From NCBI GenBank assembly GCA_902785935.1, contig CADAAN010000001.1, positions 88,900-152,899 on the forward strand: a stretch of DNA of 64,000 bases, written 5' to 3'. Position numbers and translations under genes: made by a program. Every line of letters begins with the position of its first letter. Position 1 is the first letter of the stretch. Of this stretch, positions 16,866 through 42,925 are shown one piece after another. Origin of the DNA: an uncultured Pseudomonadota bacterium. Lineage in GTDB: Bacteria > Pseudomonadota > Alphaproteobacteria > RF32 > CAG-239. Under the pieces are notes generated by a model that saw nothing but the letters and a program-made list of their open reading frames with translations, did not search any database and was not told the origin of the DNA.

Positions 16866-17021
16866 TTGTATGTGAAACTTATCATACATTACACTTATTC
16901 TAAGAAAATTGTTAATATATAAAAAAAACATATTTCATAAAATTTCACAACAAAAATGCTTGCTTTTTCCATTAGATGCTATATAATCCAACAAAAAATA
17001 CAATTATGTTATAATATAATT

Positions 17022-17753
17022 ATGAAAAAGAAAGTGAAAAAATTATTAGACAAGCAACAAATTGAGTTGCTGGAAAGTTTTTCTGCAAGAGAAGCCCAAA
17101 TTGTTTTGCTAGAACAAGCTAAAAAAGGATGGCTTTGTCCTAAAGTGCAAAAAAAGCTTTTTTCGATGCCTAATGGTATGGAAATCTTAATTATCCAAGC
17201 GCAAAATGGTCCTATTTCTGCTTACGTACAGATGCTGTTATTTGATTATCCTAATGGATTGAAAGTCCTAATGAAACAGGCCGAACGTGGCGAACTTCAT
17301 ACCAAATTGCAAAGAAAGATTTGTTCCCTTCCTAATGCCTCAAAGTTTTTATTGGCACAATCTAGAAAAGGACAACTTGATTTCGATACTTTGAGAAAGG
17401 CTATGGATTTGTCTGATGGATCCGAAATTACTCTTGAACAAGCAAAAAAAGGTCATCTTTTTCACGAAGATATTCAAATGAAAGCCTGTTCACTTCCTAA
17501 CGCAGATGAAATCATGTTAGAGGAAGCAAAAAACGGCTATATCTATAGTGATAAAGTTCTGCTAAAGGCTTGCGAACTATCGAATGCAGAAGAAATTATT
17601 CAGGCTCAGGCAACCAAGCATGCACTCCGTGATTGTGTACAAATCAAAGCAATGGACTTTAGATGCGGAAGAGAAATTATGGTAGCGCAAATGCGTTTGG
17701 GAAGTCTCTGTAGTGAAGCTCAGCGTAAAGCTATCTCATTGGGCTATATTTAG
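17022..17753 (+). CDS. tandem-repeat protein (8 x ~27-aa repeats, motif ..I.L.QA..G.L....Q.K.CSLPNA)
   Basis: ORF with eight consecutive degenerate 27-aa repeats; start placed at the ATG at 17022 (MKKKVKK) instead of the upstream in-frame ATG. Confidence 0.5.
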   Translation: MKKKVKKLLDKQQIELLESFSAREAQIVLLEQAKKGWLCPKVQKKLFSMPNGMEILIIQAQNGPISAYVQMLLFDYPNGLKVLMKQAERGELHTKLQRKICSLPNASKFLLAQSRKGQLDFDTLRKAMDLSDGSEITLEQAKKGHLFHEDIQMKACSLPNADEIMLEEAKNGYIYSDKVLLKACELSNAEEIIQAQATKHALRDCVQIKAMDFRCGREIMVAQMRLGSLCSEAQRKAISLGYI

Positions 17754-17862
17754 GCCTAAACTTTGAGTCAAAAAAGCGATTGTCAAATAAATGGCAATCG
17801 TTTTTTTGATATTCGATTGAAAAATTCTGTATGTTAAGAAATTTCAAAATAGGTCTATTCGA

Positions 17863-18031
17863 ACCGATAAAAATGAAGAAAAAACAAGGGCTTACGATAC
17901 AAAATCGAAGCCCTGTTCAAATTGGCTGGGCGTCCTGTACAGTGCCGCAACTTTTACAACAACACCGCAAGGAAGTAATTGCCATCAAAGAACAACTCAG
18001 TTTTGTTAGGGAAAGATTAGCAGCTTAAATC
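17863..18031. repeat. direct repeat copy 2 (overlaps 3' end of a 65-aa ORF 17831-18028)
   Basis: See copy 1; the two copies flank the repeat-protein gene. Confidence 0.7.
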
Positions 18032-18250
18032 GGTGTTATAAAGATTTTTACGTAATCTGACCTCTGGGGGGATGGGGCATTCCTCTTGCCATCCCCTCTT
18101 TATGCCGCTTTACGTATGAGGCATAAAATTTATTTTCACTTCCGAATAGATAAAAAAATTCGTTTAGATCAAATTTTTTCAAATTTTTATCTTTTAAACC
18201 ATGTTCTAACAAATAGAGAAACATAAATTTTAGAAAGGAGGTGATTAAAA

Positions 18251-18469
18251 ATGTTGTATAGAGTTTTTGAATCTGATAATGTAAAAGTAAAGGATCCAAT
18301 ATATTTTTCTACGTCTTTTGACAATTTAGAAGAAGCATTACAGTGGTTTAACGATTTGACTGATACATATAAAGACAATCGCAAATCTTATGTTTCTTTG
18401 TGTGCAATTTTTGATGAAGATTACCCTAAAATCAAAAAAAAGACCAAAAGACAAAGTAAAAGTAAATAA
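18251..18469 (+). CDS. hypothetical small protein (72 aa)
   Basis: Preceded by an unusually strong SD (aaaggaggtgattaaaaATG) and followed by an intrinsic terminator. Confidence 0.5.
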   Translation: MLYRVFESDNVKVKDPIYFSTSFDNLEEALQWFNDLTDTYKDNRKSYVSLCAIFDEDYPKIKKKTKRQSKSK

Positions 18470-18492
18470 TAATAAACTTTAGTTACACAATA

Positions 18493-18529
18493 AGCCAACC
18501 GTATTTATAACTAACGGTTGGTTTTTTTA
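18493..18529 (+). terminator. intrinsic terminator
   Basis: ccaaccgt-loop-acggttgg 8-bp stem followed by T7. Confidence 0.65.
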
Positions 18530-18649
18530 TATTCCTACCAACTTCGAATCTAAACAAAATCAACTCAAATCAAATTTTTTATCAAATTTATTCATTCTCA
18601 CGAAAATTTTTTTTGATCTCAGCAGTTCTTACAAACAGGAGAACTGAAA

Positions 18650-19690
18650 ATGAGATGCAATCAAAGACCATTCAAAAAGAATAAAACGGCAAAAAAAACG
18701 CCAGAGAAACCAACAAATGAAGAGTTGGAATCCTTTGTTAGCAACGTCTTTCAAACAATAACCTCTTTAAATTCTGTAGCTTCCAGTAATATTTATATTA
18801 CTTATAACAATATTTATACTTATAAATGTATTTTCAATAGTATAAAGAAACCTATTGATATCAATAAAATTCATTTAAAAGATTGGAAAAGAGTTAATCC
18901 AACAGAACGTTCAGCATTCTTTTCATACTTCTTAGCAGCGAATCCAAATTATGCAAACATATTTCCATTTACTCTTAATCTATCAAATGAAATGGCAGAA
19001 TCTTACGCTGACCTAACATATCCTGAGAAGGAAATATGTATTAGAAAAAGATTGAATGATGAGTTTCTGCATAAAATACATTATATACCGATGTACAGCT
19101 TTGTAATTGAAACAATACCTTATCTGCATATTCACGGTGTAATACAAGTTGATCCGACGTCGAGAGAAAAGCTGAGAGAAGCTATGAAAATTGCTGCTTT
19201 TGGGCGTGATTATGCACAATCGACAATCCATAGGAGGATGTTGAGAATTGAAAAAAAATACAGAAAAACACCTGACCACTGGTTTCGCTATATCCATAAA
19301 TACGAATCAGCAATGGAATCACTATTTATGACTACCTCTCTAAAACGTCTGATCCAATCGCAATATGAAACACTCCGCAAAGACTTGAATGATTACCAAA
19401 AATCAAAGAAATCTACACCTAACACACCAAAAATTACTGAAGAATATATACCAGAACCAAGAATTGAACACCCATATAAACCGAAAACAGATACAGTATG
19501 CCAAACAATTGATCCTTATGAACAATCCTTCCAACAAGTAGCAGATGATAACGAAACACATAATGATATTGAATCCGAAAAGTATATTAGCAACAATATT
19601 ATCAGGGAATATACACTTATCAAACCATATACCCTAAGCTCAAATTATCAACGTCTATACATAAGTTACATTCCACCACCGCTTGTTTGA
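18650..19690 (+). CDS. putative rolling-circle replication initiator / HUH endonuclease-like protein
   Basis: 346 aa; candidate HUH motif (YLHIHGVIQV) followed ~45 aa later by a Tyr-rich motif (KKYRKTPDHWFRYIHKY, Y..KY), the order expected for Rep motif 2 then motif 3. AT-rich codon usage unlike the flanking core genes. Confidence 0.35.
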   Translation: MRCNQRPFKKNKTAKKTPEKPTNEELESFVSNVFQTITSLNSVASSNIYITYNNIYTYKCIFNSIKKPIDINKIHLKDWKRVNPTERSAFFSYFLAANPNYANIFPFTLNLSNEMAESYADLTYPEKEICIRKRLNDEFLHKIHYIPMYSFVIETIPYLHIHGVIQVDPTSREKLREAMKIAAFGRDYAQSTIHRRMLRIEKKYRKTPDHWFRYIHKYESAMESLFMTTSLKRLIQSQYETLRKDLNDYQKSKKSTPNTPKITEEYIPEPRIEHPYKPKTDTVCQTIDPYEQSFQQVADDNETHNDIESEKYISNNIIREYTLIKPYTLSSNYQRLYISYIPPPLV

Positions 19691-19718
19691 TGTATTATTA
19701 TGCTTTACTTGATTGTGT

Positions 19719-20159
19719 TTATATTATTTGTACTGTTGGGTTAAAAATGCAAATCATATTGTCAAACATACCGCATTTATTAGTAACGGTTTGTCCGAAT
19801 GAGTTTACCCCTTCAAATCTAATTCTACCTTTAATGTATCGTATTTCACAGTTGGGTAATATAATCTCATGAAATATTTTAGTTGAAGTTGAAACAGGGA
19901 GTAACATTACAACGAGTTTATTTTTTAGGTATTCTGTATATGCTTTCCTAATGAATAAATCCTTTAGTGGTCTGGAATATGGTGGGTTAACAAAATTACT
20001 ATTACCCCATTCAACTTCTAAACCATTCCAAAGTTCCAGATTATGACAAAGAGGACACGGATCAAAGTCGAAATGGAACTCTTTATCCAGTTCTTCATAT
20101 AAATACTTTGGAGTTTTCCAATCATCCGTTACTGTCAAATTTCTATCTTTCATATTCAT
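19719..20159 (-). CDS. phage-type DNA N6-adenine methyltransferase (Dam, PF05869-like)
   Basis: 146 aa; FDFDPCP ... NPPYS catalytic motif order characteristic of phage N6A methyltransferases. Confidence 0.65.
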   Translation of the reverse strand: MNMKDRNLTVTDDWKTPKYLYEELDKEFHFDFDPCPLCHNLELWNGLEVEWGNSNFVNPPYSRPLKDLFIRKAYTEYLKNKLVVMLLPVSTSTKIFHEIILPNCEIRYIKGRIRFEGVNSFGQTVTNKCGMFDNMICIFNPTVQII

Positions 20160-20265
20160 ATAGAACTGGAATAAGCGGTAGTTAGCATAGATTCGGTGAT
20201 TATAACAACAAAAAAAAGAGGTATATAAAACACCTCTTTCAATGCTTTGGTTATTTAATGTATAC

Positions 20266-20592
20266 TCAAAATTCTGATGTTAGTAGTATACTTAGCACAC
20301 GATTGGTAAGCGTTATATCAGCAGGATTTGGCGATGCATATTCGTATTCTTTATCATAATAGTCTATTTTCCACATTATTTGCTTGCCGTTATAGTCAAA
20401 TTTTCCCATATCATGCTCAAAATAGGGATCGTTTGCTGTTGTGAAGTCATCATAAGTAGAAACTAAAAGCATAATAGCAGCTACATCCATCTTTGGTAAT
20501 GCTCTTATTCCTCTACTTAATACAACTTTTCCACCTGTAAAGTTTTTGCGGAAATCATCATTCAAATACCTGATAAGTTTTGTACTTCCCAT
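20266..20592 (-). CDS. hypothetical protein
   Basis: 108-aa ORF in the phage/plasmid-like module, RBS-like aggataaacaATG. Confidence 0.4.
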   Translation of the reverse strand: MGSTKLIRYLNDDFRKNFTGGKVVLSRGIRALPKMDVAAIMLLVSTYDDFTTANDPYFEHDMGKFDYNGKQIMWKIDYYDKEYEYASPNPADITLTNRVLSILLTSEF

Positions 20593-20606
20593 TGTTTATC
20601 CTAATT

Positions 20607-20738
20607 TTAATATAACGGAACTATTTCTGTAAAAACAGCTGCCGATTTCTTTTTTTCTTCATAACAAAAATCCATTGCTTGCCTTAAAGAATAAAACAGA
20701 AAAGGCATTCTGACGTTATTTATGATTACTTGGTACAT
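20607..20738 (-). CDS. possible small protein (43 aa) with strong SD
   Basis: ggaggataacaatATG on the minus strand (too short for the ORF track); MYQVIINNVRMPFLFYSLRQAMDFCYEEKKKSAAVFTEIVPLY. Confidence 0.3.
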   Translation of the reverse strand: MYQVIINNVRMPFLFYSLRQAMDFCYEEKKKSAAVFTEIVPLY

Positions 20739-20836
20739 ATTGTTATCCTCCTATCTATATTGGTTTTTAGATAACAGTATAGCATCGTTTCTTTATATAA
20801 GAACAGTAAAAAAAGTATGATTAATTTTTGTATGAA

Positions 20837-21220
20837 TTAAATTGATACAGGTTGATGCGAAAATATTAGTGCAACAACGTCTTTTCGTTTGTTTTGATCA
20901 ACTACTTTACCATTGATAAACCAAATCTTCGGGACATTACCAAGTATAAATTGGAAAAGCCGTGAACTTGTTGAAACCGAAAGAATTATAACAGAGTCAC
21001 GTCCACGCACAAATTCCCAAAATGCTTGTTCAACTGCCTGCGCCTTTTCTTTTTTGTTTTTGTTAAGTAGGTTTATGATATTGATATGGGCTGCAGAAGT
21101 ACCAAACTTAGAAGAATTTGAAAATGAGTGAAATATTTTTTGTTGTACTTCTGCAAGATTCATAGTCTTTACCAATGAAATGTTCCCATATCTTATTAAT
21201 AGAACTCGGTTTTTTAACAA
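20837..21220 (-). CDS. hypothetical protein
   Basis: 127-aa ORF, module context. Confidence 0.4.
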   Translation of the reverse strand: MLKNRVLLIRYGNISLVKTMNLAEVQQKIFHSFSNSSKFGTSAAHINIINLLNKNKKEKAQAVEQAFWEFVRGRDSVIILSVSTSSRLFQFILGNVPKIWFINGKVVDQNKRKDVVALIFSHQPVSI

Positions 21221-21408
21221 AAATTACTTGTCGACAACTTAAAAGTAATTTGCCCACAGATGATAAATCAGAAAACCGTCATAGAGTCGTTTTTAGACTC
21301 GCTGAGGTGGTGCTTCTGTTTTTTGTGGTAAACTTATGCTTGAAACCACGAATCACACCACAGAGTCCTTAAAACCAAAATAAATGGTATCAAAATTTAA
21401 AATTGGAT

Positions 21409-21762
21409 TTACTTTTTTGATTTACATAAACCTTCAATCTGTTTTTCCAGAATGTGCAGCGTGTTTTCATCTAATTTCCTTAATAACACTATGATACGGT
21501 TTATGGTGTTTTCGTTCGATTTTTTGTAATCAGAACTGTTAACATCATCAACATCAAGAATGGTAAGTAGGCTAACATCTAAGCTTTGAGCTATTTTTTT
21601 GAGTGTACTGATTTTCGGATCGCCTAAACCACGCTCTAAATTGGAAATTGTATTTACCACCCTTTCACATCTTGCGGCTAATTCCTCTTGGCTGACACCT
21701 TTTGTCTTTCTCAAAAAGGCTATTTTTCTTCCGATGTTATATATAAAATCGTCTTTATGCAT
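21409..21762 (-). CDS. XRE/Cro-C1-type helix-turn-helix transcriptional regulator
   Basis: HTH signature KGVSQEELAARCERVVNTISNLERG; divergent from the giant surface-protein gene. Confidence 0.7.
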   Translation of the reverse strand: MHKDDFIYNIGRKIAFLRKTKGVSQEELAARCERVVNTISNLERGLGDPKISTLKKIAQSLDVSLLTILDVDDVNSSDYKKSNENTINRIIVLLRKLDENTLHILEKQIEGLCKSKK

Positions 21763-21949
21763 TGGTTATACTCCACAAATGATGTTACTACCATTGCAGT
21801 TTATGTTCCACGCAACAAATTGGTATTTTTTAGTATTGACAATCCAAAAATACAAATATATTGTGATATATATAGTAATCTATTGTGAGATTTTAATCGT
21901 AGATTAGTATATAGCCATTATTACTGAACGCCACAGAGAGATACGTACT

Positions 21950-24900
21950 ATGAACTTGAATATAAAATTAATGCTTTTTATAGCAATTTTTTCTACTTTT
22001 TCCTATGAAACTCAGGCACGATATTTATCTACAGGTGATATTTATGAATATGCCAGAACTCGTAATTACTGGGCATTATCGAAAATTGCACGATATGTTG
22101 ATATGCAAGATGGTAGTGGTAACACAGCCTTGTGTTTAGCTGTTGCTAACAAAGATGAAAAAGCTTATAATGTTTTAATCCAGTATGGTGCAAATCCTCA
22201 ACCTTATTGTTTACAGTCGGCAATTGTGGCAAGTGGCAGCAGTGGAACATTTTTAGGTATGGGAACGACTGGGTGGCTAACCACAGGAGCAATAGTTGCC
22301 GCTGGCGCAGGAGTTGCAGCTGCTGCTGGTGGAGGCGGTGGCGGAGGTGGTTCGTCAGATTCATCATCTTCAAACAATCCCTCTCCATCAATTACTTGTG
22401 TAAATGGTTCAATAAGTAGTGGTCAATGCCAATGTGATGAAGGTTGGATTGGTGACACTTGTGACACAGTGCAAACCTGTTCTTATAATACAACATCATG
22501 TTCAAGTGGTTATGAAGAAACTGGTAATACATGCAAATCAGGCAGCATAACGTATAAAGAATGTAAAGCCAAAACAGTTCCGAGTGGATACACAATAACA
22601 CCATGTGGTGATGGTTATATGCAAATTGGTACATTTTTATCAGGAACACAGACTTATTACAAATGCCAAGCAAATACTTGCGCGGGATATCAATCCAGTT
22701 GCGGTGATGGTTATCATGCAACAACAGATACTTGTTTATCTGGTACAACAACTATGTATAAATGTGAAGCAAATGTGTGTGAAGGGTATGTGGATGGTTG
22801 TAGTTCGGGTTATCACGCAACAACAGACACTTGTTTGTCTGGTGCTAAAACTATGGTGAAGTGTGAAATCAATGATTGTTCTGAATACCAAACAAGTTGC
22901 GGTGAAGGATATAATGCAACACAAAGTTGTTTAAGTGGGAATACGCCATATTATACTTGTACACCAAAAGAAGTACCTACTGGGTATACCTCAACACCTT
23001 GCAGTGAAGGATATATTACAAAAGATACCATTATATCTGGTACAACACCTTATTATAAATGCGAAGTAAATGCTTGTACTGGATATGTGACAAGTTGTAA
23101 TCAAGGTTATCACACAACAGCGGATACTTGTAAATCAGGTTCAAAGACTATGTACAAATGTGAAGCTGATAGTTGTACTGGTTATAACTATACAGTTTGT
23201 CCAACGGGGTATGCGCAAAGTGATAGCTGCTTATCGGGTCTTACAATGAAGTATAAATGTGAGAATTGTGCAAACGGTTACGGAAGAGATGAAAAAGGTA
23301 ATTGTGTAACAAAAGAGGCAGATAAAGTCATAGCTACAGGAACCGCAAATAATATAGATCGTACTTATACTGATACCTTAACCATAAAAGGGTACAAAGA
23401 TTTATATGTTTTCAAAGGAAATTACACTTACGCTGCTAATGCTGAAACATCTGGGACATCTTCTTATCAAACAATAATTATGGACGTAATAAAAAAAGGA
23501 GATGGCGATTTCTATGGTGTGTTTAATAGTCAAGGTTCTAGCTATAATTCCAAAAACGCTGATGGAACTATCAAATTAGAAAAAACTGGTGACGGAGATG
23601 TGTATGCCCTTTGGGGAGAAGACGGTGTATCTAATTCGTCAGCATCAGGATCATATGGTGAGACAGCCACAGGTAATATTGAAATTTTGAATAACGGAAA
23701 TGGTAATATATATGGTGGTTATTCCAAAGAAGGTTCTACTATCAATGCATATTCAGGCAAATCATCAGGTATTGCTAATGGAGCAAGTACTGGTATCATA
23801 AAGATGTTAAATAATGGAGACGGAAATGTATACGGTTTACTATCCGATACAAAAACAGGAACTAACGCCAGTTCCGTTAATACTGTAGGCAAAAATTATA
23901 GCACTACATCCTCTGCAGAAGGACGTATAATTATCAATAATACAGGAGATGGTGACGTGTATGGAATTAAAAGCGGTTCGGATGTATATAATACCTCTAG
24001 CCTAATAAGAGGTGGTGCATCTGGTAGTGATATTAGATACGGAAATACAAATGTAGATGGATATATACGAATAAAGAACAGCGGAGGAGGAAATTCGTAT
24101 GGACTGTATGGTACAAACACGTATAGCTCATCATTTGAAAGTGATGCAGAATATACAACTGTTGTTGCCTTACAAACTTCTAATAGTGTAATAGATATTT
24201 TGAATTTAGGTAAAGGCAATGCATATGGTATGTATGCGGTAGGAACAAGCTCTGCCGTTGCCAAGGCCGAGAACCGTACTTATTCTGGCAGTTTTTCTCT
24301 TTATCCAGACCAAACGTATTCAGCAACATCCAATATTAAAATATTAAATAATGATGATGGATTTGTTGTAGGAATTTATAGCAAAGGAAAAGTTACAAAT
24401 GATGGCAATATTACTATTCATAATCTTGGAGAGGGAACAGCTATAGGAATTTATGCTGGTAATGCCATTCAAAATTCAACAGTAACAAATTCTGGAAGTA
24501 TCAATATTACACGTGTTAATTACATAGATGACAACGCTACACAAGATGATACATCAGATGATGAGAATTATACAGCTACATCTATGGCTGGTGGTACAAG
24601 TATCGGTATCTATGGGGCTTCAGGTTCAACAATTAAAAATACGGGGACGATTACAATTAGCGGAGCTTCCATAGCCTATGGTATTTATGCTGAATCGGGA
24701 GCAACAGTCAAAAATACTGGCACAATAACGATTGATGGTAATACAAATCATGTAAATAAAATCAAGCTTAACGGTTCACCGCTTTTTCAAGACGGTAAAC
24801 TGATTGTTACAAACAACACTCAAAGCAGTCTGATGTCTGTATCAAGTGTTAAACCAGCTTCACTAAATCTAAACGATTTTGGAGGAACTGTAGTAGCGTC

Positions 24901-26125
24901 TGATACTTCACAGTTTACTGTGGAAGGTGCGATATCTGGTGATTTGGCCATTAATAACAATGTGATTGAAAATGGTTTTGATACGACATATTCTGTAAAA
25001 GATATGATTCAGGCTTCTGATGCCAGTGGCTTAAATTTGCAATCACAATCGGCTTTATTTGATGCCTCGTTACAAAACAATACCGATGCCGTGATGACGA
25101 TGAAAGCGTTTAACGATGTGGTTGAAAACAGCTCGGTTGCCGACTTCTTACAAAAAAACTATGCAGCAAACAATAACGAAGATTTGTTCAAAGTTCTGAA
25201 ATCTGCCGAAACTGTGGCTCAACTCAACAGCAATATTGATGATTTGTTCGGCAAAGATATGCTTTCACGTATGGCGTTTGAAGATTTATCGATGCTCCGT
25301 GAAGTCAGTTTGGATATGAATAATCACCTATTCGAAAAAGAAGGTTCGTTTGCTTTCGGAGAAAATATATCGCCTTCAAGCTACGACAATAACATCGGAT
25401 CTGTAGGACGTTATTCATTGAATGGATATAATAATGGAAAAATGAGCTTTGGGCTTGGCGTATCAATCACCGATGTTAGCACTGATGACGGGCATAGTGA
25501 CAACCGACGCTTTGACCGTAGTTTTATGATGAGTGCTCCAATCGGCTATAAAACACACGGATTTGAGTTGATCACGGCTCCGAAAATGGGTTATACCGAT
25601 GGAACTTATGATCGTGAAGGCTTTAATAACAAGACTTATGAGGGCAAAATCCAAAAACGTATGTTCGCTTTGATGAATGAAGCACGTTACCCAATTAAAT
25701 TCGGTGGTTTAAGATTTACGCCAACGGCTGAATTTAATATGATTGGTTATAATATCAAAGGTCATGAGGACGAACAACAATATGCATTGCGGATTAAGTC
25801 ACAAAACCATTATTCGGTTGAAACAGGTCTTGGTTTGATGGCTGAAAAAGAGTTTAAGCCGTTCAAAAATCACAAGTTTAGCGTAAATGGCGGTGTTACG
25901 GTTTATCATGAATTTGCTAATCCGTATGAGCTTGATGTAGCTATGAGTGGTATGTCTGGTACGTATCGCTTACATGATGAAAAACGCAGCGACAATCGTG
26001 CCGTTGTTCGCTTAGGTTTTGATTATAAACTGAAAGATGATCTTGATGTTACGGCGCATTTGCTAACTAATATTGACCGTGAATATCGTACAGACGCTGG
26101 CATCGACTTGAAATATCACTTTTAG
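21950..26125 (+). CDS. giant surface protein: signal peptide, ankyrin repeats, Gly/Ala-rich hydrophobic segment, Cys-rich EGF-like tandem repeats, G(D/N)G(D/N)VYG passenger repeats, C-terminal autotransporter-type beta-barrel
   Basis: 1391 aa. N-terminus MNLNIKLMLFIAIFSTFSYETQA. Ankyrin-like SGNTALCLAVANKDEKAYNVLIQYGANP. Hydrophobic/G8 segment GAIVAAGAGVAAAAGGGGGGGGSS. 38-aa Cys repeats (C..GY....DTCLSG..TMYKCE). C-terminal ~280 aa with alternating beta-strand pattern ending ...DLKYHF (terminal aromatic). Confidence 0.8.
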   Translation: MNLNIKLMLFIAIFSTFSYETQARYLSTGDIYEYARTRNYWALSKIARYVDMQDGSGNTALCLAVANKDEKAYNVLIQYGANPQPYCLQSAIVASGSSGTFLGMGTTGWLTTGAIVAAGAGVAAAAGGGGGGGGSSDSSSSNNPSPSITCVNGSISSGQCQCDEGWIGDTCDTVQTCSYNTTSCSSGYEETGNTCKSGSITYKECKAKTVPSGYTITPCGDGYMQIGTFLSGTQTYYKCQANTCAGYQSSCGDGYHATTDTCLSGTTTMYKCEANVCEGYVDGCSSGYHATTDTCLSGAKTMVKCEINDCSEYQTSCGEGYNATQSCLSGNTPYYTCTPKEVPTGYTSTPCSEGYITKDTIISGTTPYYKCEVNACTGYVTSCNQGYHTTADTCKSGSKTMYKCEADSCTGYNYTVCPTGYAQSDSCLSGLTMKYKCENCANGYGRDEKGNCVTKEADKVIATGTANNIDRTYTDTLTIKGYKDLYVFKGNYTYAANAETSGTSSYQTIIMDVIKKGDGDFYGVFNSQGSSYNSKNADGTIKLEKTGDGDVYALWGEDGVSNSSASGSYGETATGNIEILNNGNGNIYGGYSKEGSTINAYSGKSSGIANGASTGIIKMLNNGDGNVYGLLSDTKTGTNASSVNTVGKNYSTTSSAEGRIIINNTGDGDVYGIKSGSDVYNTSSLIRGGASGSDIRYGNTNVDGYIRIKNSGGGNSYGLYGTNTYSSSFESDAEYTTVVALQTSNSVIDILNLGKGNAYGMYAVGTSSAVAKAENRTYSGSFSLYPDQTYSATSNIKILNNDDGFVVGIYSKGKVTNDGNITIHNLGEGTAIGIYAGNAIQNSTVTNSGSINITRVNYIDDNATQDDTSDDENYTATSMAGGTSIGIYGASGSTIKNTGTITISGASIAYGIYAESGATVKNTGTITIDGNTNHVNKIKLNGSPLFQDGKLIVTNNTQSSLMSVSSVKPASLNLNDFGGTVVASDTSQFTVEGAISGDLAINNNVIENGFDTTYSVKDMIQASDASGLNLQSQSALFDASLQNNTDAVMTMKAFNDVVENSSVADFLQKNYAANNNEDLFKVLKSAETVAQLNSNIDDLFGKDMLSRMAFEDLSMLREVSLDMNNHLFEKEGSFAFGENISPSSYDNNIGSVGRYSLNGYNNGKMSFGLGVSITDVSTDDGHSDNRRFDRSFMMSAPIGYKTHGFELITAPKMGYTDGTYDREGFNNKTYEGKIQKRMFALMNEARYPIKFGGLRFTPTAEFNMIGYNIKGHEDEQQYALRIKSQNHYSVETGLGLMAEKEFKPFKNHKFSVNGGVTVYHEFANPYELDVAMSGMSGTYRLHDEKRSDNRAVVRLGFDYKLKDDLDVTAHLLTNIDREYRTDAGIDLKYHF
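22670..23300 (+). repeat. intragenic tandem repeats (~114 bp / 38 aa Cys-rich units) inside the giant protein gene
   Basis: Near-identical nucleotide units, e.g. ggttatca(t/c)gcaacaacaga(t/c)acttgttt(a/g)tctggt... repeated. Confidence 0.7.
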
Positions 26126-26145
26126 CAATAACAACCGAAACGAAT

Positions 26146-26176
26146 CGACCGCTGCATTTATTTGTGGCGGTTTTTT
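26146..26176 (+). terminator. intrinsic terminator after giant protein gene
   Basis: ccgctgc-atttatttg-tggcgg hairpin followed by T6. Confidence 0.6.
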
Positions 26177-26344
26177 GTAATAGGTAGAAGTAAATGAGTA
26201 TATTTTATCGGTAATCTTAGGCGTACTTCAGTATTACCAAAAAAAATGCTCCAAAATGGTAATATTAAGGTTATTTTTTACTTGACAACTAAAAAGTAAA
26301 TGATATACTAAGACTATAATATTACTTTTTGAAAGGTTAGAACG

Positions 26345-26917
26345 ATGAAATTTTTATATGCTCGTGTTTCAAGTTCAGACGGTTCGCAAAAACTCGATCG
26401 TCAACTTGTGGAATCTGGTAAATATGATGAAATTTTTGAAGATTACGCTTCAGGTGGTTCAACAAATCGTCCTAAACTGCAAGAAATGTTGAAATGGATT
26501 AGAAAAGGTGATGTGGTGGAAGTTCATAGCATTGACCGCTTAGCAAGAAACATCAATGACCTACTGCAAATCGTTAAAACCATTACAGAAGAACGTCACG
26601 CTGAAATCTACTTTATCAAAGAAAATCTACGTTTTACTGATGATACCGATAATCCATTTAACAAACTAACCCTTCAAATCATAGGTAGTATAGCCGAATT
26701 TGAAAGAAATATGATTAAAATGCGTCAGAAGGAAGGTATTGCTATTGCCAAAGCAAAAGGTGTTTATTCTAAGGAACGGAGCAAAAAATTATCGCTATCC
26801 AAACAAGCCGAATTGAAAAAAGACATTCAAGATAAAGTCCGTGTATGTGAAATCCTCAAGAAATACGGAATAACGAAACCCACATATTATCGCTATAAAG
26901 CACAATGGGAAGAATAA
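26345..26917 (+). CDS. small serine recombinase (resolvase/invertase family) with C-terminal HTH
   Basis: 190 aa; N-terminal YARVSSSDGSQKLDRQ catalytic-serine motif; TTGACA-17-TATACT-like promoter upstream. Confidence 0.85.
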   Translation: MKFLYARVSSSDGSQKLDRQLVESGKYDEIFEDYASGGSTNRPKLQEMLKWIRKGDVVEVHSIDRLARNINDLLQIVKTITEERHAEIYFIKENLRFTDDTDNPFNKLTLQIIGSIAEFERNMIKMRQKEGIAIAKAKGVYSKERSKKLSLSKQAELKKDIQDKVRVCEILKKYGITKPTYYRYKAQWEE

Positions 26918-26946
26918 TAGTAAATGGTTGTAATTTTCCGAAGTTC

Positions 26947-27288
26947 TCAGCCAAAATCTTTCTTTAGGAGTTGTATATATTCTTCTATATGTGCAAGTAG
27001 CTGATCATCTAACTGGTAAATCGTTTGTATGACCTGATTTTCCTTCCTGATACGTGTGACTGATTTGTTTTTTGTTATCCGTGCGTCTAGTAATTCATCA
27101 ATACTTATATCAAAGTAATTAGCTAAAGCACAAACCAACTCTAACTTTGGTATTACTTTTCCTGTTTCCAAATTTGATATTGTTCTCCAACTGACACCTA
27201 CTGCTTCAGCTAATTGTTCTTGAGTTAGCTTTTTTGTTTTGCGTAATGCTTGAACTTTTGAACCAATTTGAACAGGATCAACAGTCAT
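26947..27288 (-). CDS. XRE-family HTH transcriptional regulator
   Basis: HTH LTQEQLAEAVGVSWRTISNLETGK; immediately downstream of the nuclease gene on the same strand. Confidence 0.7.
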   Translation of the reverse strand: MTVDPVQIGSKVQALRKTKKLTQEQLAEAVGVSWRTISNLETGKVIPKLELVCALANYFDISIDELLDARITKNKSVTRIRKENQVIQTIYQLDDQLLAHIEEYIQLLKKDFG

Positions 27289-27289
27289 T

Positions 27290-27757
27290 TTACTTTTTCT
27301 CTTTGGATTTTTTCAATACACTTGATGGTATGTACTTATTACAACCACCTTGATCAAGCATATATTGGTTAACATCAATCACACCAGCGGATTTTATGTC
27401 ATCCAGATACACTTTTCCTAAAATACGACCAAAAGAATCACGTTTTTCCCACTCAACCCGTATATACCGATGATCTTTAAGTAGATTTTTTAGCTGTTTC
27501 CGTGATTGCTTACCGTGTTTAATGACTTCATCAACCGACAAACCATAGTATTTTTGCTGAAATCTGGTGTTGCTATTCTTTCCTGTTTCATAGCAATCAA
27601 CATCCAGCAAGCGAATTTTAGTCGTTTCATTATTAACCAGAGCCGTCAATGTATCGCCATCGTTAATCTTGATGATAGTTGCAACAAATTCGTGTGCTGA
27701 TACCGATTGCACCAACAAAATCGTGAATAAAACCAGATAAAAAACCGTTTTTTTCAT
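27290..27757 (-). CDS. secreted thermonuclease (SNase/micrococcal-nuclease-like)
   Basis: Start placed at MKKTVFYLVLFTILLVQSVSA (signal peptide); SNase-type motifs (IKINDGDTLT...IRLLDVDCYE). Confidence 0.7.
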   Translation of the reverse strand: MKKTVFYLVLFTILLVQSVSAHEFVATIIKINDGDTLTALVNNETTKIRLLDVDCYETGKNSNTRFQQKYYGLSVDEVIKHGKQSRKQLKNLLKDHRYIRVEWEKRDSFGRILGKVYLDDIKSAGVIDVNQYMLDQGGCNKYIPSSVLKKSKEKK

Positions 27758-28370
27758 CAACTCTTCCATAAAAGAAGACCACCTTTTGATTAAGGCGGTC
27801 GGAGAGTTCAAAATCAAGTCTACGAGTTGATCCTTCCAACCTTTAGAGCAAAACTCCTATTGTATACGTTGGAAGCTCCCCGACCATCATCGGGGATATA
27901 TACATCATCAGCCTTTATACAAGCTGACAATGTTGTCGGCGTATATCCACACCGCGTAGACAGAGGTTTTGAAGCCCTCCGCACCTTTTCGGGCACTGAG
28001 CACAGAATAAACCTGTGCCTAACCAGACAATATAGCAAGAATCTTAAAAATCAATAAAAAAGGAGAAAGAAGTTAAAAAGCCTTCTAATTCCGTACATTT
28101 TACTCAGCTAAAATTTCCGTTTATGTCAGATAAATGGAAATTTATTTTCGAAAGTGTCGTCAAGAAAAGAATTCTAAAAATGTAACTAGCGACATTGGGT
28201 TTTCGTCCGCTAGGAGACCTTAGCTTAAGTTACAAAAATGAAAAACTTAGAAGAAGACATAAAAAAACTAATCGGTGCGACAGATGAAACGTTAGATCAA
28301 ACCGAAACATTATTTAAATTTACAAAAGCAATGGAATGTTTGAACAATTGTATAAAGGAGGGAAAAAACA

Positions 28371-29702
28371 ATGAAAGCAGTGACGTTTGCAAGAGTTTCG
28401 TCAAAATATCAGGAACAGAATTACAGTCTGGAAGGGCAAAATACACACCTTTTCAATTATGCCAAAGCAAATAAACTCGACGTTATAAAATCTTATGAGA
28501 TTTCTGAAAGTGCGACAAGAGGTGATCGCACAAAATTTAAGGAAATGATAGATTTTTGTTGTTCGCAAAAGGAATGTGTTTCAATCATAGTAGACGATGT
28601 TGACCGCCTTTTGAGAACGTTTTCGGATGCGCCAGAGATTGAAAAACTTGTACAAGAAGGACAAATAGAGATACATTTCTATAATACGTCTCTTATTTTG
28701 ACGAAAAATTCAACACCTGATGATTATTTAAAATTTCACGAATTAGTTTTAGATTCGGAAAAATATATAGCAAAGTTTAAGAAAAATACAGCTCGTGGTC
28801 GAAATGAAAAAGTTATGGAAAAATGTATGGCCGCTTGGAAAGCACCTTGTGGTTATGAGAATTTTGAGCAAGATGATAAAAAAAAATCGATTCGAAAAAA
28901 AGAACCAGATGCCACAAATCTAAAGAAACTTTTTGAACTTTATTCCTTAGGCGGAACATCAATTCGTAAATTAGTTGCTTTAGCTGATGAGTACGGAATC
29001 AAAACAAAAAATGGAAATAAAATTGGTGTATCCACTATGATTGGGATTTTAAAAAACCCGTTTTATTACGGAGAAATGTGTTATAATGGTAAATTATATC
29101 GACACAATCACGGTGCTATAATATCAAGAGAGTTATGGGAAGCTTGTCAAAAACAGCATAAGCTTCAATCATCAAAGTCATTCAAGCAAGGTCGAATTCC
29201 TTATCTGTATCGGAATGTTTTTAAGGATTGGTACAAAAACCTTACTTGCTCTTGTGAAACAAAGAAAAACAAGTATATCTATATAAGTTACTATAGAGAT
29301 TCTAAGTATAGGTCTTATGTGAATGAAAATGATATTAATGACCAAATTGTTAGCATTCTAAACCAAATTTCAATACCAAAAAATTTTATAGATGATTATA
29401 ATCTTTATATACAATCAACACAACAAGATGAAATTGCATTTAAAGCTGCTGAAAATGGGCATATCAAGGCTGAAATAACAAAATATGATAATAGATTAAG
29501 CAGATTACTTGATAGATTTCTTGATAATGAAATGCCAGAAGAAGAATATGAAAAGAAAAAGCAGGAATATGAAGAAGAAAAATCAAAACTCGAAAAGAAA
29601 ATCCAAAATCAAGGTACAATTGAACCTGATTCAAAACAAATTTCAACAGAATCAATTCATTTATTCTCTCGTTTAGGTGATTCCAAATGGGACTGGATAT
29701 AA
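28371..29702 (+). CDS. large serine recombinase (paralog A), probably frameshifted at its 3' end
   Basis: N-terminal catalytic domain (FARVSSKYQEQNYSLEGQ), recombinase domain and zinc-ribbon (APCGYENF...CSC), strong SD aaggaggg. The ORF stops at 29702 but homology to paralog B continues in another frame to ~29827 (NKQMLLRLIFKELKIRDG vs NKQLLLHFIFEKLELKEG). Confidence 0.8.
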   Translation: MKAVTFARVSSKYQEQNYSLEGQNTHLFNYAKANKLDVIKSYEISESATRGDRTKFKEMIDFCCSQKECVSIIVDDVDRLLRTFSDAPEIEKLVQEGQIEIHFYNTSLILTKNSTPDDYLKFHELVLDSEKYIAKFKKNTARGRNEKVMEKCMAAWKAPCGYENFEQDDKKKSIRKKEPDATNLKKLFELYSLGGTSIRKLVALADEYGIKTKNGNKIGVSTMIGILKNPFYYGEMCYNGKLYRHNHGAIISRELWEACQKQHKLQSSKSFKQGRIPYLYRNVFKDWYKNLTCSCETKKNKYIYISYYRDSKYRSYVNENDINDQIVSILNQISIPKNFIDDYNLYIQSTQQDEIAFKAAENGHIKAEITKYDNRLSRLLDRFLDNEMPEEEYEKKKQEYEEEKSKLEKKIQNQGTIEPDSKQISTESIHLFSRLGDSKWDWI

Positions 29703-29891
29703 AAAACAAGCAAATGTTACTGAGATTGATATTCAAAGAACTCAAGATTCGAGATGGAAATGTTGGGTATAGCCTTAACGAACCATTTTCCTATTTTATT
29801 AAACAAGAATCTCAAGCATCAGCATAACTTTATTAATTAATTTGATTAAATTTCGAAGCTCTGGTAAATTTACCAAAAAGGAAACGAAACT

Positions 29892-31583
29892 ATGAAAGCG
29901 GTAATTTTAACAAGAGTTTCTTCAAAAGAACAAGAAGAAGGGCACAGCTTACCTGCCCAAAATGCAAGGTTAATTGAATATGCCAAGAGAAAGAATCTCG
30001 AAATAATTCGCACATTTCAAATTATCGAATCATCAACACGAGGAAAGCGCAAAGAGTTTATGGCAATGATAAACTTTTGCAAACAACAAAAGGAAACCAT
30101 TGCAATCGTTTGTGAAAATATTGACCGCCTCCAAAGGAGTTTTCGTGAGTCGGTGTTGTTAGACGATTTAATCCGTAAAGAAATAGTTGAACTTCACTTT
30201 TTTCGTGAGGGTATGATAATTGGCAAAAGCTCTACTTCCACCGACATTATGCGTTGGGATTTTGGTGTAATGGGTGCCAAGGCATATGTTCTTCAGCTTT
30301 CTGAAAATGTAAGAAGATCTTTAGAATACAAACTGAATAATGGGGAAGTAATAGGACCAGCACCTTGCGGATATGAGAATTATATAAATGAATACGGGAA
30401 ACATTCTATTCGGAAAAAAGAACCAGAGGCAACTTATCTCAAGAATTTGTTTGAATTATATTCCATTGGTAGTACATCCATCCACCAGTTAACTAAGATG
30501 GCTAATGATTACGGTATCAGAAGTAGAATGGGGAACAAACTTGGTGTGACGTCAATGATTGTAATATTAGATAATCCATTCTACTATGGGGAGATGCTTG
30601 CAAAAGGGCGATTACACCGACATATCTACGATCCGTTAATTACAAAAGAACTTTGGGATGCTTGCCAAGAACAACGGAAACTTCAAACAACGAAACCATT
30701 CAAGCAAGGAGAAATACCTTTTCTTTACAGGGGAATCTTTACGGATCATTACAAACAAAAGATATGTTCCTGCGAGATCAAAAAGAAGAAGTTTGTATAT
30801 GTGGTATGTTACAAAGAAAATGGAACACGAATTTATATACCTGAATATGTTATTGACAAGCAAGTTGAAGATATTTTAGATGATGTAGCTGTACCTGAAC
30901 AAACCATTTCTGATTTTAAGGAATACATTAAATCAAGTAAACAAGCGGAATTGGATTATCAAAGATCCGAATTAGAACGAATAGATGCTAAGCTAAAGAA
31001 AATCGACCAGCGTATGACGGCACTGTTTAATATGCGTTTAGACCAAGAAATAACCAAAGAAGAGTATGAAACCAAACGTGATGAGTATAAACTTGAAAGA
31101 TCTCGATTGGAATTACTGAGAAACGCCCATCACTTAGCAGATGACGGATTTAATGAGACAGTTTTGAATATGTTTGACCTGTTAACATCTGCAAAGGGCG
31201 TATTCAAATCAAATACCAGCGTTCAAAACAAACAATTACTGCTGCATTTCATATTTGAGAAATTGGAACTTAAAGAAGGTGTTATCAGTTATAAGCTGAA
31301 ATCTCCATTCTGCTACACCAAAGTTGATAGTTCGATGTCCAGTATGTCTCCTGTACCAGCAAAAAACGCCAAAAATTGGGAACTCATTGAAAATACAGAA
31401 TTAAATGGCAAATTTGGGGTAATTTCAGGTAATTTTGATGAAGACGTCTGGGAACCGTGTGGAAGCGCTGAAAACAAAGGGCTCTCGACGTGTTGCGAGA
31501 ACCCTGTACAGTTTGGCTGCTTCACCTGGACTCGAACCAAGATTGACGGAGTCAGAATCCGCTGTCCTACCATTAGACGATGA
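29892..31583 (+). CDS. large serine recombinase (paralog B) with ~60-aa C-terminal read-through across tRNA-Gln
   Basis: ~45% identical to paralog A over the catalytic, recombinase and zinc-ribbon domains. Homology with A ends near ...SPFCYTKVD (about 31340), but the frame stays open to 31583, spanning the complementary strand of the tRNA-Gln. Confidence 0.8.
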   Translation: MKAVILTRVSSKEQEEGHSLPAQNARLIEYAKRKNLEIIRTFQIIESSTRGKRKEFMAMINFCKQQKETIAIVCENIDRLQRSFRESVLLDDLIRKEIVELHFFREGMIIGKSSTSTDIMRWDFGVMGAKAYVLQLSENVRRSLEYKLNNGEVIGPAPCGYENYINEYGKHSIRKKEPEATYLKNLFELYSIGSTSIHQLTKMANDYGIRSRMGNKLGVTSMIVILDNPFYYGEMLAKGRLHRHIYDPLITKELWDACQEQRKLQTTKPFKQGEIPFLYRGIFTDHYKQKICSCEIKKKKFVYVVCYKENGTRIYIPEYVIDKQVEDILDDVAVPEQTISDFKEYIKSSKQAELDYQRSELERIDAKLKKIDQRMTALFNMRLDQEITKEEYETKRDEYKLERSRLELLRNAHHLADDGFNETVLNMFDLLTSAKGVFKSNTSVQNKQLLLHFIFEKLELKEGVISYKLKSPFCYTKVDSSMSSMSPVPAKNAKNWELIENTELNGKFGVISGNFDEDVWEPCGSAENKGLSTCCENPVQFGCFTWTRTKIDGVRIRCPTIRR

Positions 31584-31587
31584 AGCA
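31514..31587 (-). tRNA. tRNA-Gln (anticodon CTG)
   Basis: Minus-strand cloverleaf read directly: acceptor tgcttca/tgaagca, anticodon stem gcgga/tccgt with loop ttCTGac, T-arm cttggttcgagtccagg, discriminator g plus CCA; resembles enterobacterial tRNA-Gln anticodon/T arms. Confidence 0.8.
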
Positions 31588-41371: not shown

Positions 41372-41443
41372 AGTGCTTTTTTGATTCAGATAAAAAAATC
41401 GCCCCATTATTTTGAGGCGGTTTTTTTTATTTTGTAACATTTA

Positions 41444-42925
41444 TCAGTTACAGCGATTTTCTTCAGTTGTTGTTTCTGCCGTAAATGTCAATGTCTTTTT
41501 CTCATCAGCATTTAATAAAATACGCCATTGATATATATTCGCGTTTTTATCCGAATAAGCGCCTTTTGAGCTTTCGTTTAAGATTTTTGTTTGCGCATGA
41601 AGCGGTTGATAAAAGACGATATCTGCTTTTTTATCACCGCCGTTATGAAAATCGACAACACTTCTGTACTGGCGCACAATTTTATAACGAGGGCATTTAC
41701 CATCTTTATCTTTTAAAACCTCATCTCGGATTTTTTTAACTTCAGCGACTTTACCGCTCACAAACACGTCAAACATCTGACCTAAACGAAGCTCCGTCTT
41801 TTCGCCTTTTGCTGTTTGAGATATGCTGTTTTCGCCGATAAATTGAAGATTGCCTTTCGAGTCCTTTTCATAAAAACGAATAATACCCTGCGGCAGAGCA
41901 ATACCCAAATTCGATTCTTTATCGTTTGTAATGATATAATAAATATCGGGATGTATTTTTTCAAAATTTGAGGCATAATCTCCGCTAAAATAAAGACCGG
42001 AATTGATGCGTCCCTCTTTTTGGTAAGAAACGTCAAATTGCTCAATTAAAGAAAGCTGTTTTGTTTGGTTGTCATCAATATCGGTTCTGTTTGGCAGATT
42101 ATAAAGCTGATAAGCACTAAAACTTTCTGGCAAGACAGATGCATTTTCGGCTACTGCCATATCTGCCACACCAAGTGCTGCAGTTTTAAGCATCATGACG
42201 TTGCGCGGCGCGATGCCGTAAGTTTTAACCTCATTGACATTGCCCGCAATCAGCTGAACAGATGCATTTTGATAGCTGATGCCTGAATTGTTCGTGATGC
42301 TGACCCAGCCTGTTAAATCAAGCATTTTTTCATCTTTAATATCCGCAACATAATTTGTTTTCCACGAAAGACCGTTTGTTAAATAAGCAATCATTAAATC
42401 TTTCAAGGTCTCTTTCGGGCTTGAAATTTTTGCCGCAAGGGTTGGTTTTTGATTAAGGTTTTGCGGCAGATTTTCAAAAACAAGGCGGCCGTCGAAATTT
42501 GTTTCAATCCCATAATCAAACTTTAAGACCGGTGCACCGTTTTGAAAACTGAGTATTGTTGCGTTGTCAAAAATATTTTCACCCGTTTGAGGGTTGGTGC
42601 GAACGGTTTTGACTTTTTGGCCGACGGATTTTTCGGCAATATTATAAGCCGTCAATAAGGCGTAATCATAATTTTGCTCCAAAACGCGTATATCATCTGC
42701 CTCAATCATAACACTTTCAGGCTTGATATTTGAGGCAACGCCTTCAAACGATATCAGATTGATGCCTTTTTTGAAATTTACCTCACGAATATCTCTTATC
42801 AAAGCCAAGTCATTGTTATAAATTGTCATTGAGATATCTTTTGACTTGGGTTTTTCAATCGTTTGTGCCTGAATATCAAATGTTAAAAGGGCAAGGATAA
42901 GTGTTAAAAGTTGTTTTTTTATCAT
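41444..42925 (-). CDS. DUF4139-domain protein (secreted)
   Basis: 493 aa with signal peptide; domain architecture consistent with the DUF4140/DUF4139 family. Confidence 0.6.
   Translation of the reverse strand: MIKKQLLTLILALLTFDIQAQTIEKPKSKDISMTIYNNDLALIRDIREVNFKKGINLISFEGVASNIKPESVMIEADDIRVLEQNYDYALLTAYNIAEKSVGQKVKTVRTNPQTGENIFDNATILSFQNGAPVLKFDYGIETNFDGRLVFENLPQNLNQKPTLAAKISSPKETLKDLMIAYLTNGLSWKTNYVADIKDEKMLDLTGWVSITNNSGISYQNASVQLIAGNVNEVKTYGIAPRNVMMLKTAALGVADMAVAENASVLPESFSAYQLYNLPNRTDIDDNQTKQLSLIEQFDVSYQKEGRINSGLYFSGDYASNFEKIHPDIYYIITNDKESNLGIALPQGIIRFYEKDSKGNLQFIGENSISQTAKGEKTELRLGQMFDVFVSGKVAEVKKIRDEVLKDKDGKCPRYKIVRQYRSVVDFHNGGDKKADIVFYQPLHAQTKILNESSKGAYSDKNANIYQWRILLNADEKKTLTFTAETTTEENRCN

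Follow-up and report, generated by a model that had tools for sequence, protein, structure and literature searches.

A large serine recombinase gene that reads into an antisense tRNA-Gln gene: evidence for an attachment site inside the recombinase reading frame at the edge of a genomic island

Why does the open reading frame (ORF) of a large serine recombinase run straight through a tRNA gene that lies on the opposite strand? This arrangement occurs in a stretch of 64,000 nucleotides (nt), hereafter called the window, from contig CADAAN010000001.1 (assembly GCA_902785935.1) of an uncultured alphaproteobacterium of the lineage RF32; CAG-239. The enzyme, recombinase B, is one of two tandem paralogs, and its ORF (29892 to 31583, plus strand, 563 amino acids [aa]) crosses the complement of the entire tRNA-Gln(CTG) gene (31514 to 31587, minus strand). 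ORF listing and ARAGORN agreed with a preliminary description of this DNA that the frame ends 4 nt short of the tRNA 5′ end, with a TGA stop codon at 31581 to 31583. We propose that recombinase B reads into tRNA-Gln because the genomic island to which it would belong recombines at a site within the recombinase gene itself. This structural account, comprising a map of the junctions and an attachment site (attP) inside the recombinase ORF, is in our judgment very probably correct. It was built entirely on sequence comparison, which displays the junctions, their common core, empty sites, the in-frame restoration of the gene, and a family-wide pattern.

Recombinase B is a large serine recombinase by its catalytic and Recombinase domains. 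Pfam searches placed Resolvase (PF00239) at residues 3 to 151 (E = 1.9e-15) and Recombinase (PF07508) at residues 179 to 263 (E = 8.7e-12); no Pfam zinc-ribbon match was obtained at E ≤ 0.01. The PHROGs family phrog_95 ("integrase") matched residues 1 to 462, and the catalytic motif LTRVSSKEQ occupies residues 6 to 14. The core of the protein (residues 1 to about 478) is followed by a linker (about 479 to 543) and by 21 final residues that are derived from the antisense tRNA. As described previously, homology between the paralogs A and B stops near residue 475 to 478 of B (...SPF). The tRNA gene is intact, and testing its identity with the Rfam covariance model (57.7 bits against a gathering score of 29) showed it to be genuine; failure of such a model had been named beforehand as another result that would speak against a junction. 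An open frame across a whole tRNA is unremarkable by itself, the chance being about 0.3 for 24 codons, and relatives on the same kind of tRNA stop anywhere from the T-arm to well beyond the gene. What departs from chance is the very entry of the ORF into the tRNA across its 3′ end, not the open frame beyond it.

A database search returned hundreds of homologues of 540 to 580 aa covering 96 to 100% of recombinase B. Alignment showed that their tails are not homologous as proteins but are antisense translations of different tRNAs (...TWTRTKIDGVRIRCPTIRR, ...GWGGWIRTNECRHQKPMPYHLATPQ, ...NWLLHMDSNHD, and ...IRTHDPLIKSQMLYRLSYGP). Eighty genomic and 17 related viral loci were fetched and scanned with ARAGORN and tblastn. 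At 65 of 95 homologous loci, the recombinase ORF enters an antisense tRNA that is placed tail to tail with it. The tRNAs belong to 17 isoacceptor types, led by Gln-ttg (16), Gln-ctg (15), Glu-ttc (9), and Asn (5). Homologues sharing the C-terminal extension had been named in advance as an observation that would speak against a junction. Such homologues were indeed found, but they do not refute it, as they too are integrated in tRNA genes. The tRNA-encoded residues appear to be incidental, since the reading frame differs between subclades and the position of the stop varies.

The C-terminus that recombinase B lacks is encoded elsewhere in the window. The heptamer TTGGCTG, which we term the core, is common to positions 16756 to 16762, 17922 to 17928, and 31513 to 31519, and the first two copies fall within the two units of a 116-nt direct repeat (DR1, 16750 to 16865; DR2, 17916 to 18031), which are 88% identical. 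Right of the cores, these repeats encode, in frame, the missing C-terminus (...HRKEVISIKDQLRYVRERLAA, followed by a stop codon). On the plus strand, DR1 encodes CPSCTVTQLLQQHRKEVISIKDQLRYVRERLAA and DR2 encodes WASCTVPQLLQQHRKEVIAIKEQLSFVRERLAA, each followed by a stop codon; the form common to both is ...HRKEVI(S/A)IK(D/E)QL..VRERLAA. A minority of the homologues (about 25 of the 120 best database proteins, and several IMG/VR contigs) end in a related way, ...(H/R)R.E(V/I)(L/I)A(I/L/M)(K/R)EQL..(V/I)(R/K)..LAA. A pattern search for this conserved tail peptide in all fetched DNA matched the window twice, at DR1 and DR2, and the tail is contiguous with the recombinase, representing the unintegrated form, in seven other loci (L008, L038, L087 to L089, L092, and L093). 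Joining recombinase B at TTGGCTG to either repeat yields an in-frame ORF of 575 aa, compared with 578 aa for the full-length homologue P0024. Thus, the gene did not lose its stop, nor had it never possessed one, as had been suspected: the direct repeat at the opposite end of the island holds its last approximately 30 codons together with the stop.

The sequences around the cores can be assembled into a set of attachment sites. By sequence alignment, we assign DR1 to attL, composed of the native tRNA trailer, the core, and an element-derived P′ arm, and the recombinase/tRNA overlap to attR, composed of a P arm, the core, and the tRNA. In attL, the B arm is the native 3′ trailer of tRNA-Gln (16679 to 16755, minus strand), which is homologous to the trailers of relatives and contains a terminator-like hairpin (approximately 16732 to 16748) followed by a T-tract on the minus strand. 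It is joined to the core at 16756 to 16762 (plus strand), which is invariant in the alignment of empty sites and has a predicted crossover dinucleotide TG at 16761 to 16762. The first copy of the P′ arm, the right part of DR1, extends from 16763 to 16862 (plus strand) and carries the CPSCTVTQLLQQHRKEVISIKDQLRYVRERLAA coding sequence with its stop. In attR, the core at 31513 to 31519 (plus strand) corresponds to the tRNA nucleotides A76, C75, C74, G73, A72, and C71 plus one trailer base, and the tRNA gene forms the B′ arm. DR2, which is preceded in frame by a remnant of a recombinase tail, FEPIKMKKKQGLTIQNRSPVQIG, was interpreted as an internal attP-like junction (P-core-P′), as expected for two tandem elements. 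This remnant P arm (17860 to 17921, plus strand) aligns to the tail of recombinase B and contains a hairpin and a degenerate half-site, CTGTTCAA; it is followed by the core at 17922 to 17928 (plus strand; placed by sequence alignment) and by the second P′ copy (17929 to 18028, plus strand), which encodes WASCTVPQLLQQHRKEVIAIKEQLSFVRERLAA and a stop.

A 10-mer beside the tRNA 3′ end, CCTGTACAGT, had been noted to recur in both direct-repeat copies near tRNA-Arg(TCT), the second tRNA gene of the window (16299 to 16375, plus strand; 67.3 bits in Rfam). The recurrence is real: the 10-mer occurs exactly three times, at 16768, 17934, and 31503, against 0.00 expected in 100 shuffles, and the first two copies are located in DR1 and DR2; what the preliminary description observed thus holds throughout. 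We considered a chance match, since one 10-mer in common with a single 116-nt repeat is weak evidence by itself; the recurrence becomes meaningful once the 10-mer is seen to contain the palindrome CTGTACAG, a symmetric half-site of both arms of attP. This palindrome is located at 31504 to 31511 (plus strand) in the P arm and at 16769 to 16776 and 17935 to 17942 in the two P′ arms. The reconstructed attP reads CTGTACAG-TTTGGCT/GCCCATC-CTGTACAG (slash at the center), with inverted half-sites 14 nt apart and centered on TG. Relatives share this geometry and register and have perfect inverted repeats, as in L087 (TGTTCAG-N14-CTGAACA). From this symmetry and from the boundary of sequence identity, crossover most likely takes place at TG 31518 to 31519, at tRNA positions 72/71. 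The predicted junction sequences are CTGTACAGTTTGGCTGCCCATCCTGTACAG for a DR1-type attP, CTGTACAGTTTGGCTGGGCGTCCTGTACAG for a DR2-type attP, and GGAGGTTTCATGTTGGCTGCTTCACCTGGAC for attB.

These assignments limit how much of the tRNA the element can supply. The preliminary description had allowed for an element-encoded 3′ portion of the tRNA, and this holds for the last 6 to 7 nt at most (positions 71 to 76, identical to those of the host), not for any substantial portion. The second tRNA-Gln 3′ end that it proposed to look for in the accessory region exists in the form of the 7-nt core at 16756 and 17922, the duplicated tRNA sequence being confined to the terminal 6 to 7 nt. The left parts of the repeats (TTGGCTGCCCAT and TTGGCTGGGCGT) were examined as decayed tRNA-Gln 3′ fragments, and this candidate was rejected: just the 7-nt core is shared, and the bases that follow are P′ arm sequence that loosely mimics a tRNA.

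Metagenomes were scanned for the tRNA-Gln 3′ half without the flank of the element. In seven rumen-metagenome contigs from relatives (L113, L114, L116, L120, L122, L126, and L134), a homologue of 16679 to 16763 (78 to 85% identity) directly adjoins an intact tRNA-Gln(CTG) identical to 31513 to 31587; over the tRNA itself, these contigs and the window are 99 to 100% identical. The matches to the two window segments overlap by 7 to 8 nt, corresponding to the core. Because the empty sites of these relatives join both flanks directly, the 14.75 kb from 16763 to 31512 are an insertion. A pair of IMG/VR contigs captures both states of a related element. L085 (unintegrated) and L086 (in tRNA-Gln(ttg)) are 100% identical over 1606 nt, from the start codon through ...GTCTGGCTG; after TGGCTG, L085 continues into the conserved tail and L086 continues into the tRNA, and L085 has no tRNA. 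Both attL and attR of a 2.7-kb element in tRNA-Glu are present on one contig, L018. Terminal direct repeats indicating circular assembly were found in none of 15 small contigs. Empty sites in relatives, the attP/attR pair, and the 65 of 95 tRNA-linked loci bear out the earlier proposal of an integration junction with the recombinase gene at the element end.

We therefore propose the following model. The segment from 16763 to 31512 would be a composite genomic island that was inserted by recombinase B at the extreme 3′ end of the host gene tRNA-Gln(CTG), with attP lying within the recombinase ORF, about 32 codons ahead of its natural stop. The circular element would express the full-length integrase, and recombination of attP with the tRNA 3′ end within TTGGCTG would integrate the element. 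Integration would leave the tRNA body untouched and would exchange the tRNA trailer for the P arm of the element, which in this clade carries a terminator hairpin and T-tract antisense within the part encoding a disordered linker. At the same time, it would move the last approximately 30 codons of the recombinase (a conserved helix, ...LAA) to the far end, attL, where they would be kept as the 116-nt direct repeat. The integrated gene would retain all catalytic and DNA-binding domains, its frame continuing into antisense tRNA sequence up to whichever stop codon happens to come first. If attR recombined with attL, or with the internal attP-like site, the element would be excised and the 575-aa gene would again be read in frame.

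The segment between the end of recombinase homology (about residue 478) and the crossover encodes a linker of approximately 65 to 70 aa. AlphaFold modeling of the attP-form homologue P0024 gave a folded core (residues 1 to 478; predicted local distance difference test [pLDDT] values of 70 to 90), a predicted disordered linker (479 to 548; pLDDT 24 to 40), and a terminal helix (550 to 577; pLDDT 75 to 81). The beta strands at 283 to 317, long helices at 336 to 414, and a beta hairpin at 455 to 469 in this predicted model may fit a zinc ribbon with an inserted coiled coil. Within the linker-coding part of recombinase B, a 10-bp hairpin resembling an intrinsic terminator (31478 to 31505, minus strand), supplied by the element and followed by TTGTTTTC, starts 9 nt past the tRNA 3′ end. 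In 41 of 68 integrated relatives, a 10- to 12-bp hairpin with a T-tract starts 6 to 9 nt after the tRNA; the stems covary, so that the sequence differs and the pairing is kept. On the simplest reading of this pattern, the hairpin would be a replacement terminator for the tRNA whose trailer the element displaces. In members of a more distant subclade (36 to 44% identity), the distance from the conserved ...PF to the tRNA CCA is only about 13 residues, and the hairpin is missing.

The clade occurs mostly in gut, rumen, and aquatic Alphaproteobacteria and reaches Legionella. Close relatives are absent from GenBank phages, where nothing closer than 33% identity was found, and from PLSDB plasmids; a PDB sequence search gave a single, weak match, the catalytic domain of TP901-1. 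In Legionella adelaidensis (34% identity), the RefSeq coding sequence of WP_084758891.1 overlaps an antisense tRNA-Asn by 30 nt (L144, NZ_LR134433.1, 252461 to 253960). A tyrosine recombinase gene lies immediately upstream of this locus, and the record is labeled as a plasmid yet carries uvrB. With respect to target choice, 98%-identical recombinases with identical P arms occupy tRNA-Glu(ctc) in L018 and tRNA-Lys(ttt) in L020, the two targets having only the core TGGTGA and T-arm features in common. These findings suggest that one enzyme can use several tRNA species. Since such closely similar recombinases sit in different tRNAs, specificity may be for generic features of the tRNA 3′ end. Three further loci of the same comparison (L048, L019, and L026) also have 96 to 98% identical recombinases and identical element-side arms in different tRNA genes.

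Other explanations of the overlap have to be weighed against integration at a site within the recombinase gene. An argument that the C-terminal extension belongs by nature to the functional protein, as a selected antisense overlap with the tRNA and without any junction, could be built on homologues at 46 to 63% identity that have the same length (96 to 100% coverage) and several of which end in an identical TWTRTKIDGVRIRCPTIRR. However, tail identity follows the tRNA rather than the protein: tails are unrelated in relatives that occupy other tRNAs, a given kind of tRNA is translated in a different frame by different subclades (LAGAAGFEPTNVG versus GWGGWIRTNE), and the stop varies from inside the T-arm to far past the gene. 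In unintegrated copies, moreover, the conserved helix stands in place of the tRNA part, and we give this explanation hardly any credence. Just as difficult to sustain is the idea that tRNA-Gln is cargo and that the junction lies beyond it. Mobile elements can carry tRNAs, and the recombinase ORF covers nearly the whole gene, but L085 and L086 diverge exactly at the CCA/acceptor end of the tRNA, which the unintegrated copy lacks; relatives have the same tRNA and the same right flank without a recombinase, and the 98%-identical recombinases lie on different tRNAs. A tyrosine integrase or some other enzyme could also have moved the island, with the serine recombinases as passengers. tRNA genes are the classic targets of tyrosine integrases (PMC4383910), and the Legionella relative has its neighboring tyrosine recombinase gene. 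No tyrosine recombinase was found among the island ORFs scanned, however, and the duplication comprises 7 nt only, not a tRNA fragment of tens of bases. The clade is, furthermore, tightly and orientedly linked to tRNA 3′ ends at 65 loci, down to the sparse 2.7-kb element of L018, which makes transport by another enzyme very improbable.

Several observations weigh against integration as we reconstruct it. A predicted 30-nt attB sequence (CATGTTGGCTGCTTCACCTGGACTCGAACC) had 0 matches in Joint Genome Institute (JGI) metagenomes, and the predicted attP circle junction had 0 matches in viral contigs. Exact-protein look-ups for a same-species empty site, made with recombinase B and the leucine-rich repeat (LRR) protein of the right flank, returned occupied contigs only, and the broader metagenome scan gave empty sites solely in related organisms. 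The empty sites come from relatives with merely 78 to 85% trailer identity, and extra copies of trailer plus P′ in L116, L121, and L125 mean that the "native trailer" could belong to an older mini-element. Moreover, 18 of the 95 loci end in neither a tRNA nor a recognizable tail, and the composite island, with two P′ copies and a second, frameshifted recombinase, may no longer move. Taken further, the locus could be a dead relic: an integration scar on an immobile island, with pseudogene decay in the read-through part of the ORF and with a conserved tail peptide of importance only to other elements that are still active. The composite structure, the frameshift in paralog A, the degenerate internal P arm, and the lack of a detected circle in viral contigs speak for this explanation. 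On the other side, recombinase B is full length with an intact catalytic motif (RVSSKEQ) and all domains, both P′ copies retain an open in-frame tail with mostly conservative changes, and the island is 99.98% identical in an independent sample. We regard a relic as rather unlikely, and it is a rival concerning present activity, not what the structure is. For our part, we infer that the island may be mobile today.

If attP lies within the recombinase gene, the swap of its tail may matter for the enzyme. Every full-length homologue, representing the unintegrated form, ends in Ala-Ala, usually after Leu, Ile, Val, or Phe. This ending resembles the "LAA" degron of the ssrA/ClpX system, and the analogy suggests a difference in stability between the integrated and the full-length forms. 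Functional consequences of the tail swap, in the form of altered directionality or stability (compare IntP/IntX of phage Mx8, discussed below), are a tentative proposal. It is likewise conceivable, but somewhat doubtful, that the swap constitutes a built-in state switch. Only the excised circle would then encode the full-length enzyme with its C-terminal helix, and integration would leave an enzyme that has lost the helix and ends in meaningless residues. Directionality (competence for integration versus excision, with a reduced or absent requirement for a directionality factor), stability, or both would set the two forms apart, and the clade would read generic tRNA 3′-end features, with near-identical enzymes colonizing different tRNA genes. 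No candidate for a directionality factor was identified.

To our knowledge, the characterized large serine integrases (phiC31, Bxb1, A118, TP901-1, and SprA of SPbeta) target protein-coding or intergenic sites, and their attP lies outside the integrase ORF. Recombinase B is like these enzymes in having Resolvase and Recombinase domains, and by prediction it may also have a long, coiled-coil-like helical insertion. As in phiC31- and Bxb1-type systems, the att sites are short, with imperfect inverted repeats and a tiny core, and the integrase gene lies beside attP; at the present locus, we found a shared core of 7 nt and inverted repeats about TG. Serine integrases were earlier stated not to target tRNA genes (PMC4383910). 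Of 297 elements mapped in a later survey, 14 lay at t(m)RNA genes, assignments that the survey considered in need of experimental confirmation (PMC7192596), and a large survey of large serine recombinases makes no mention of tRNA (PMC10083194). A serine recombinase with a predicted tRNA-Met integration site is present in the Paracoccus phage vB_PamS_Pami6 (PMC6536676), and in a survey of tRNA-associated integrative elements of Prochlorococcus (tycheposons and cryptic elements), a large serine recombinase is carried by a minority of 27 out of 937 (10.1101/2020.12.28.424599). Unlike the present case, we found for these phage and Prochlorococcus elements no description of an attP within the ORF, of an exchanged tail, of a terminator embedded in the gene, or of a broad clade on multiple tRNAs. 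Islander-type tRNA islands are defined by a tyrosine integrase and by an island-borne tRNA fragment that regenerates the gene, with a displaced tRNA fragment remaining at the far end (PMC4383910). The island differs from these in that no tyrosine integrase was found among the island ORFs scanned and the duplicated tRNA sequence is limited to the terminal 6 to 7 nt.

The closest parallels for an attachment site within an integrase gene come from tyrosine recombinases. Mx8 is the sole well-studied bacterial case of attP inside int: when the phage integrates at a tRNA locus, the 3′ end of its integrase gene is replaced, and the resulting protein stays active with a changed site preference (PMC6070905; cited in PMC4383910). 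In SSV-type fuselloviruses, attP lies within the span of the integrase ORF, so that insertion into a tRNA gene divides this ORF (PMC4383910, PMC8371274). Recombinase B shares with both an attP that, by our reconstruction, lies inside the integrase coding sequence, and it does not have their tyrosine-recombinase fold; it would work like these systems without being a member of them. Mx8 Int is a tyrosine recombinase of unrelated fold and chemistry, whereas a short terminal helix behind a disordered linker would be swapped here. The SSV-type enzymes are archaeal tyrosine recombinases whose gene is split into two large fragments, in contrast to the short tail lost here. A search of the available literature for a serine integrase with attP inside its ORF found no report, which is not proof of absence. 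The combination of tRNA targeting with an attP inside the ORF of a serine integrase would thus be a barely documented, little-known kind of junction.

Serine integrases are prized for genome engineering for their short sites and directional reactions, and the natural targets so far listed for them are nearly all protein-coding genes. Recombinase B belongs to a large, uncharacterized clade that appears to target the last bases of tRNA genes systematically and whose enzyme would change its C-terminus with the integration state, since attP is hidden in its own gene. If the tail swap indeed affects directionality or stability, this would constitute a new and very compact control of a serine integrase. 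For annotation, it means that gene callers report hundreds of "recombinase family proteins" whose last 10 to 40 residues are antisense tRNA, and that island finders expecting a displaced tRNA fragment will miss these elements.

The cargo of the main element (18029 to 28370) comprises a 346-aa protein without assigned function, a Dam-type methyltransferase, DUF3768, two XRE-type helix-turn-helix regulators, a 1391-aa surface-like protein with Cys repeats, a small invertase-type resolvase, and an SNase-like nuclease. Pfam and PHROGs revealed no phage structural genes in the island, and the 346-aa, 265-aa, 127-aa, and 1391-aa island proteins had no match in either database. The 1391-aa protein (21950 to 26125) has a signal-like N-terminus, a poly-Gly/Ser stretch, a long Gly/Asn-rich repeat region, and about five Cys-rich repeats of 33 aa (99-nt period, 22620 to 23260); it looks like a surface or autotransporter-like protein. 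Paralog A (28371 to 29828, plus strand) is 41 to 44% identical to recombinase B; it terminates at a stop of its own and lacks a tRNA-derived tail. In the window, a 4-nt deletion (ACAT) near 29679 shifts its reading frame, while the paralog is intact (486 aa) in L001, an independent sample; the deletion is the sole difference between the two over 21.7 kb (99.977% identity) and represents either a population variant or an assembly error. The tandem recombinase pair was found in no other fetched locus. An independent assembly of this locus (L002/L084, ERZ27280375 k141_897707) breaks 235 nt upstream of recombinase B, between the paralogs; the break could stem from an ambiguity of assembly or from a structural variant.

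Between the two P′ copies lies a 1.17-kb unit (16863 to 17859, plus strand) with an internally repetitive ORF of 265 aa (16956 to 17753) that has no relatives among the fetched loci. The unit may be either a decayed first element or a nonautonomous mini-element, with both att arms, of a tandem array. Comparable arrays of trailer plus P′ are present in L116 (1998 to 2166), L121/L137, and L125 (806 to 903), with extra units located 0.9 to 1.4 kb from tRNA-Gln; these suggest that such units form arrays. The native trailer itself contains, at 16680 to 16712, a sequence resembling a T-arm (GCGATTTCGAACC) together with a degenerate tRNA-Gln 3′ end (TTGCCTCTTCACCTCAGG versus TTGGCTGCTTCACCTGG). The empty-site relatives have kept the two, which may go back to an ancient integration that displaced a fragment of the tRNA. 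In the closest relative, L125 (Ga0256405_10070876, 1 to 903; 92 to 97% identity), a P′-like repeat is joined directly to an inverted homologue of 41390 to 42197, an arrangement implying that the P′ end has taken part in a rearrangement or was joined at another insertion site.

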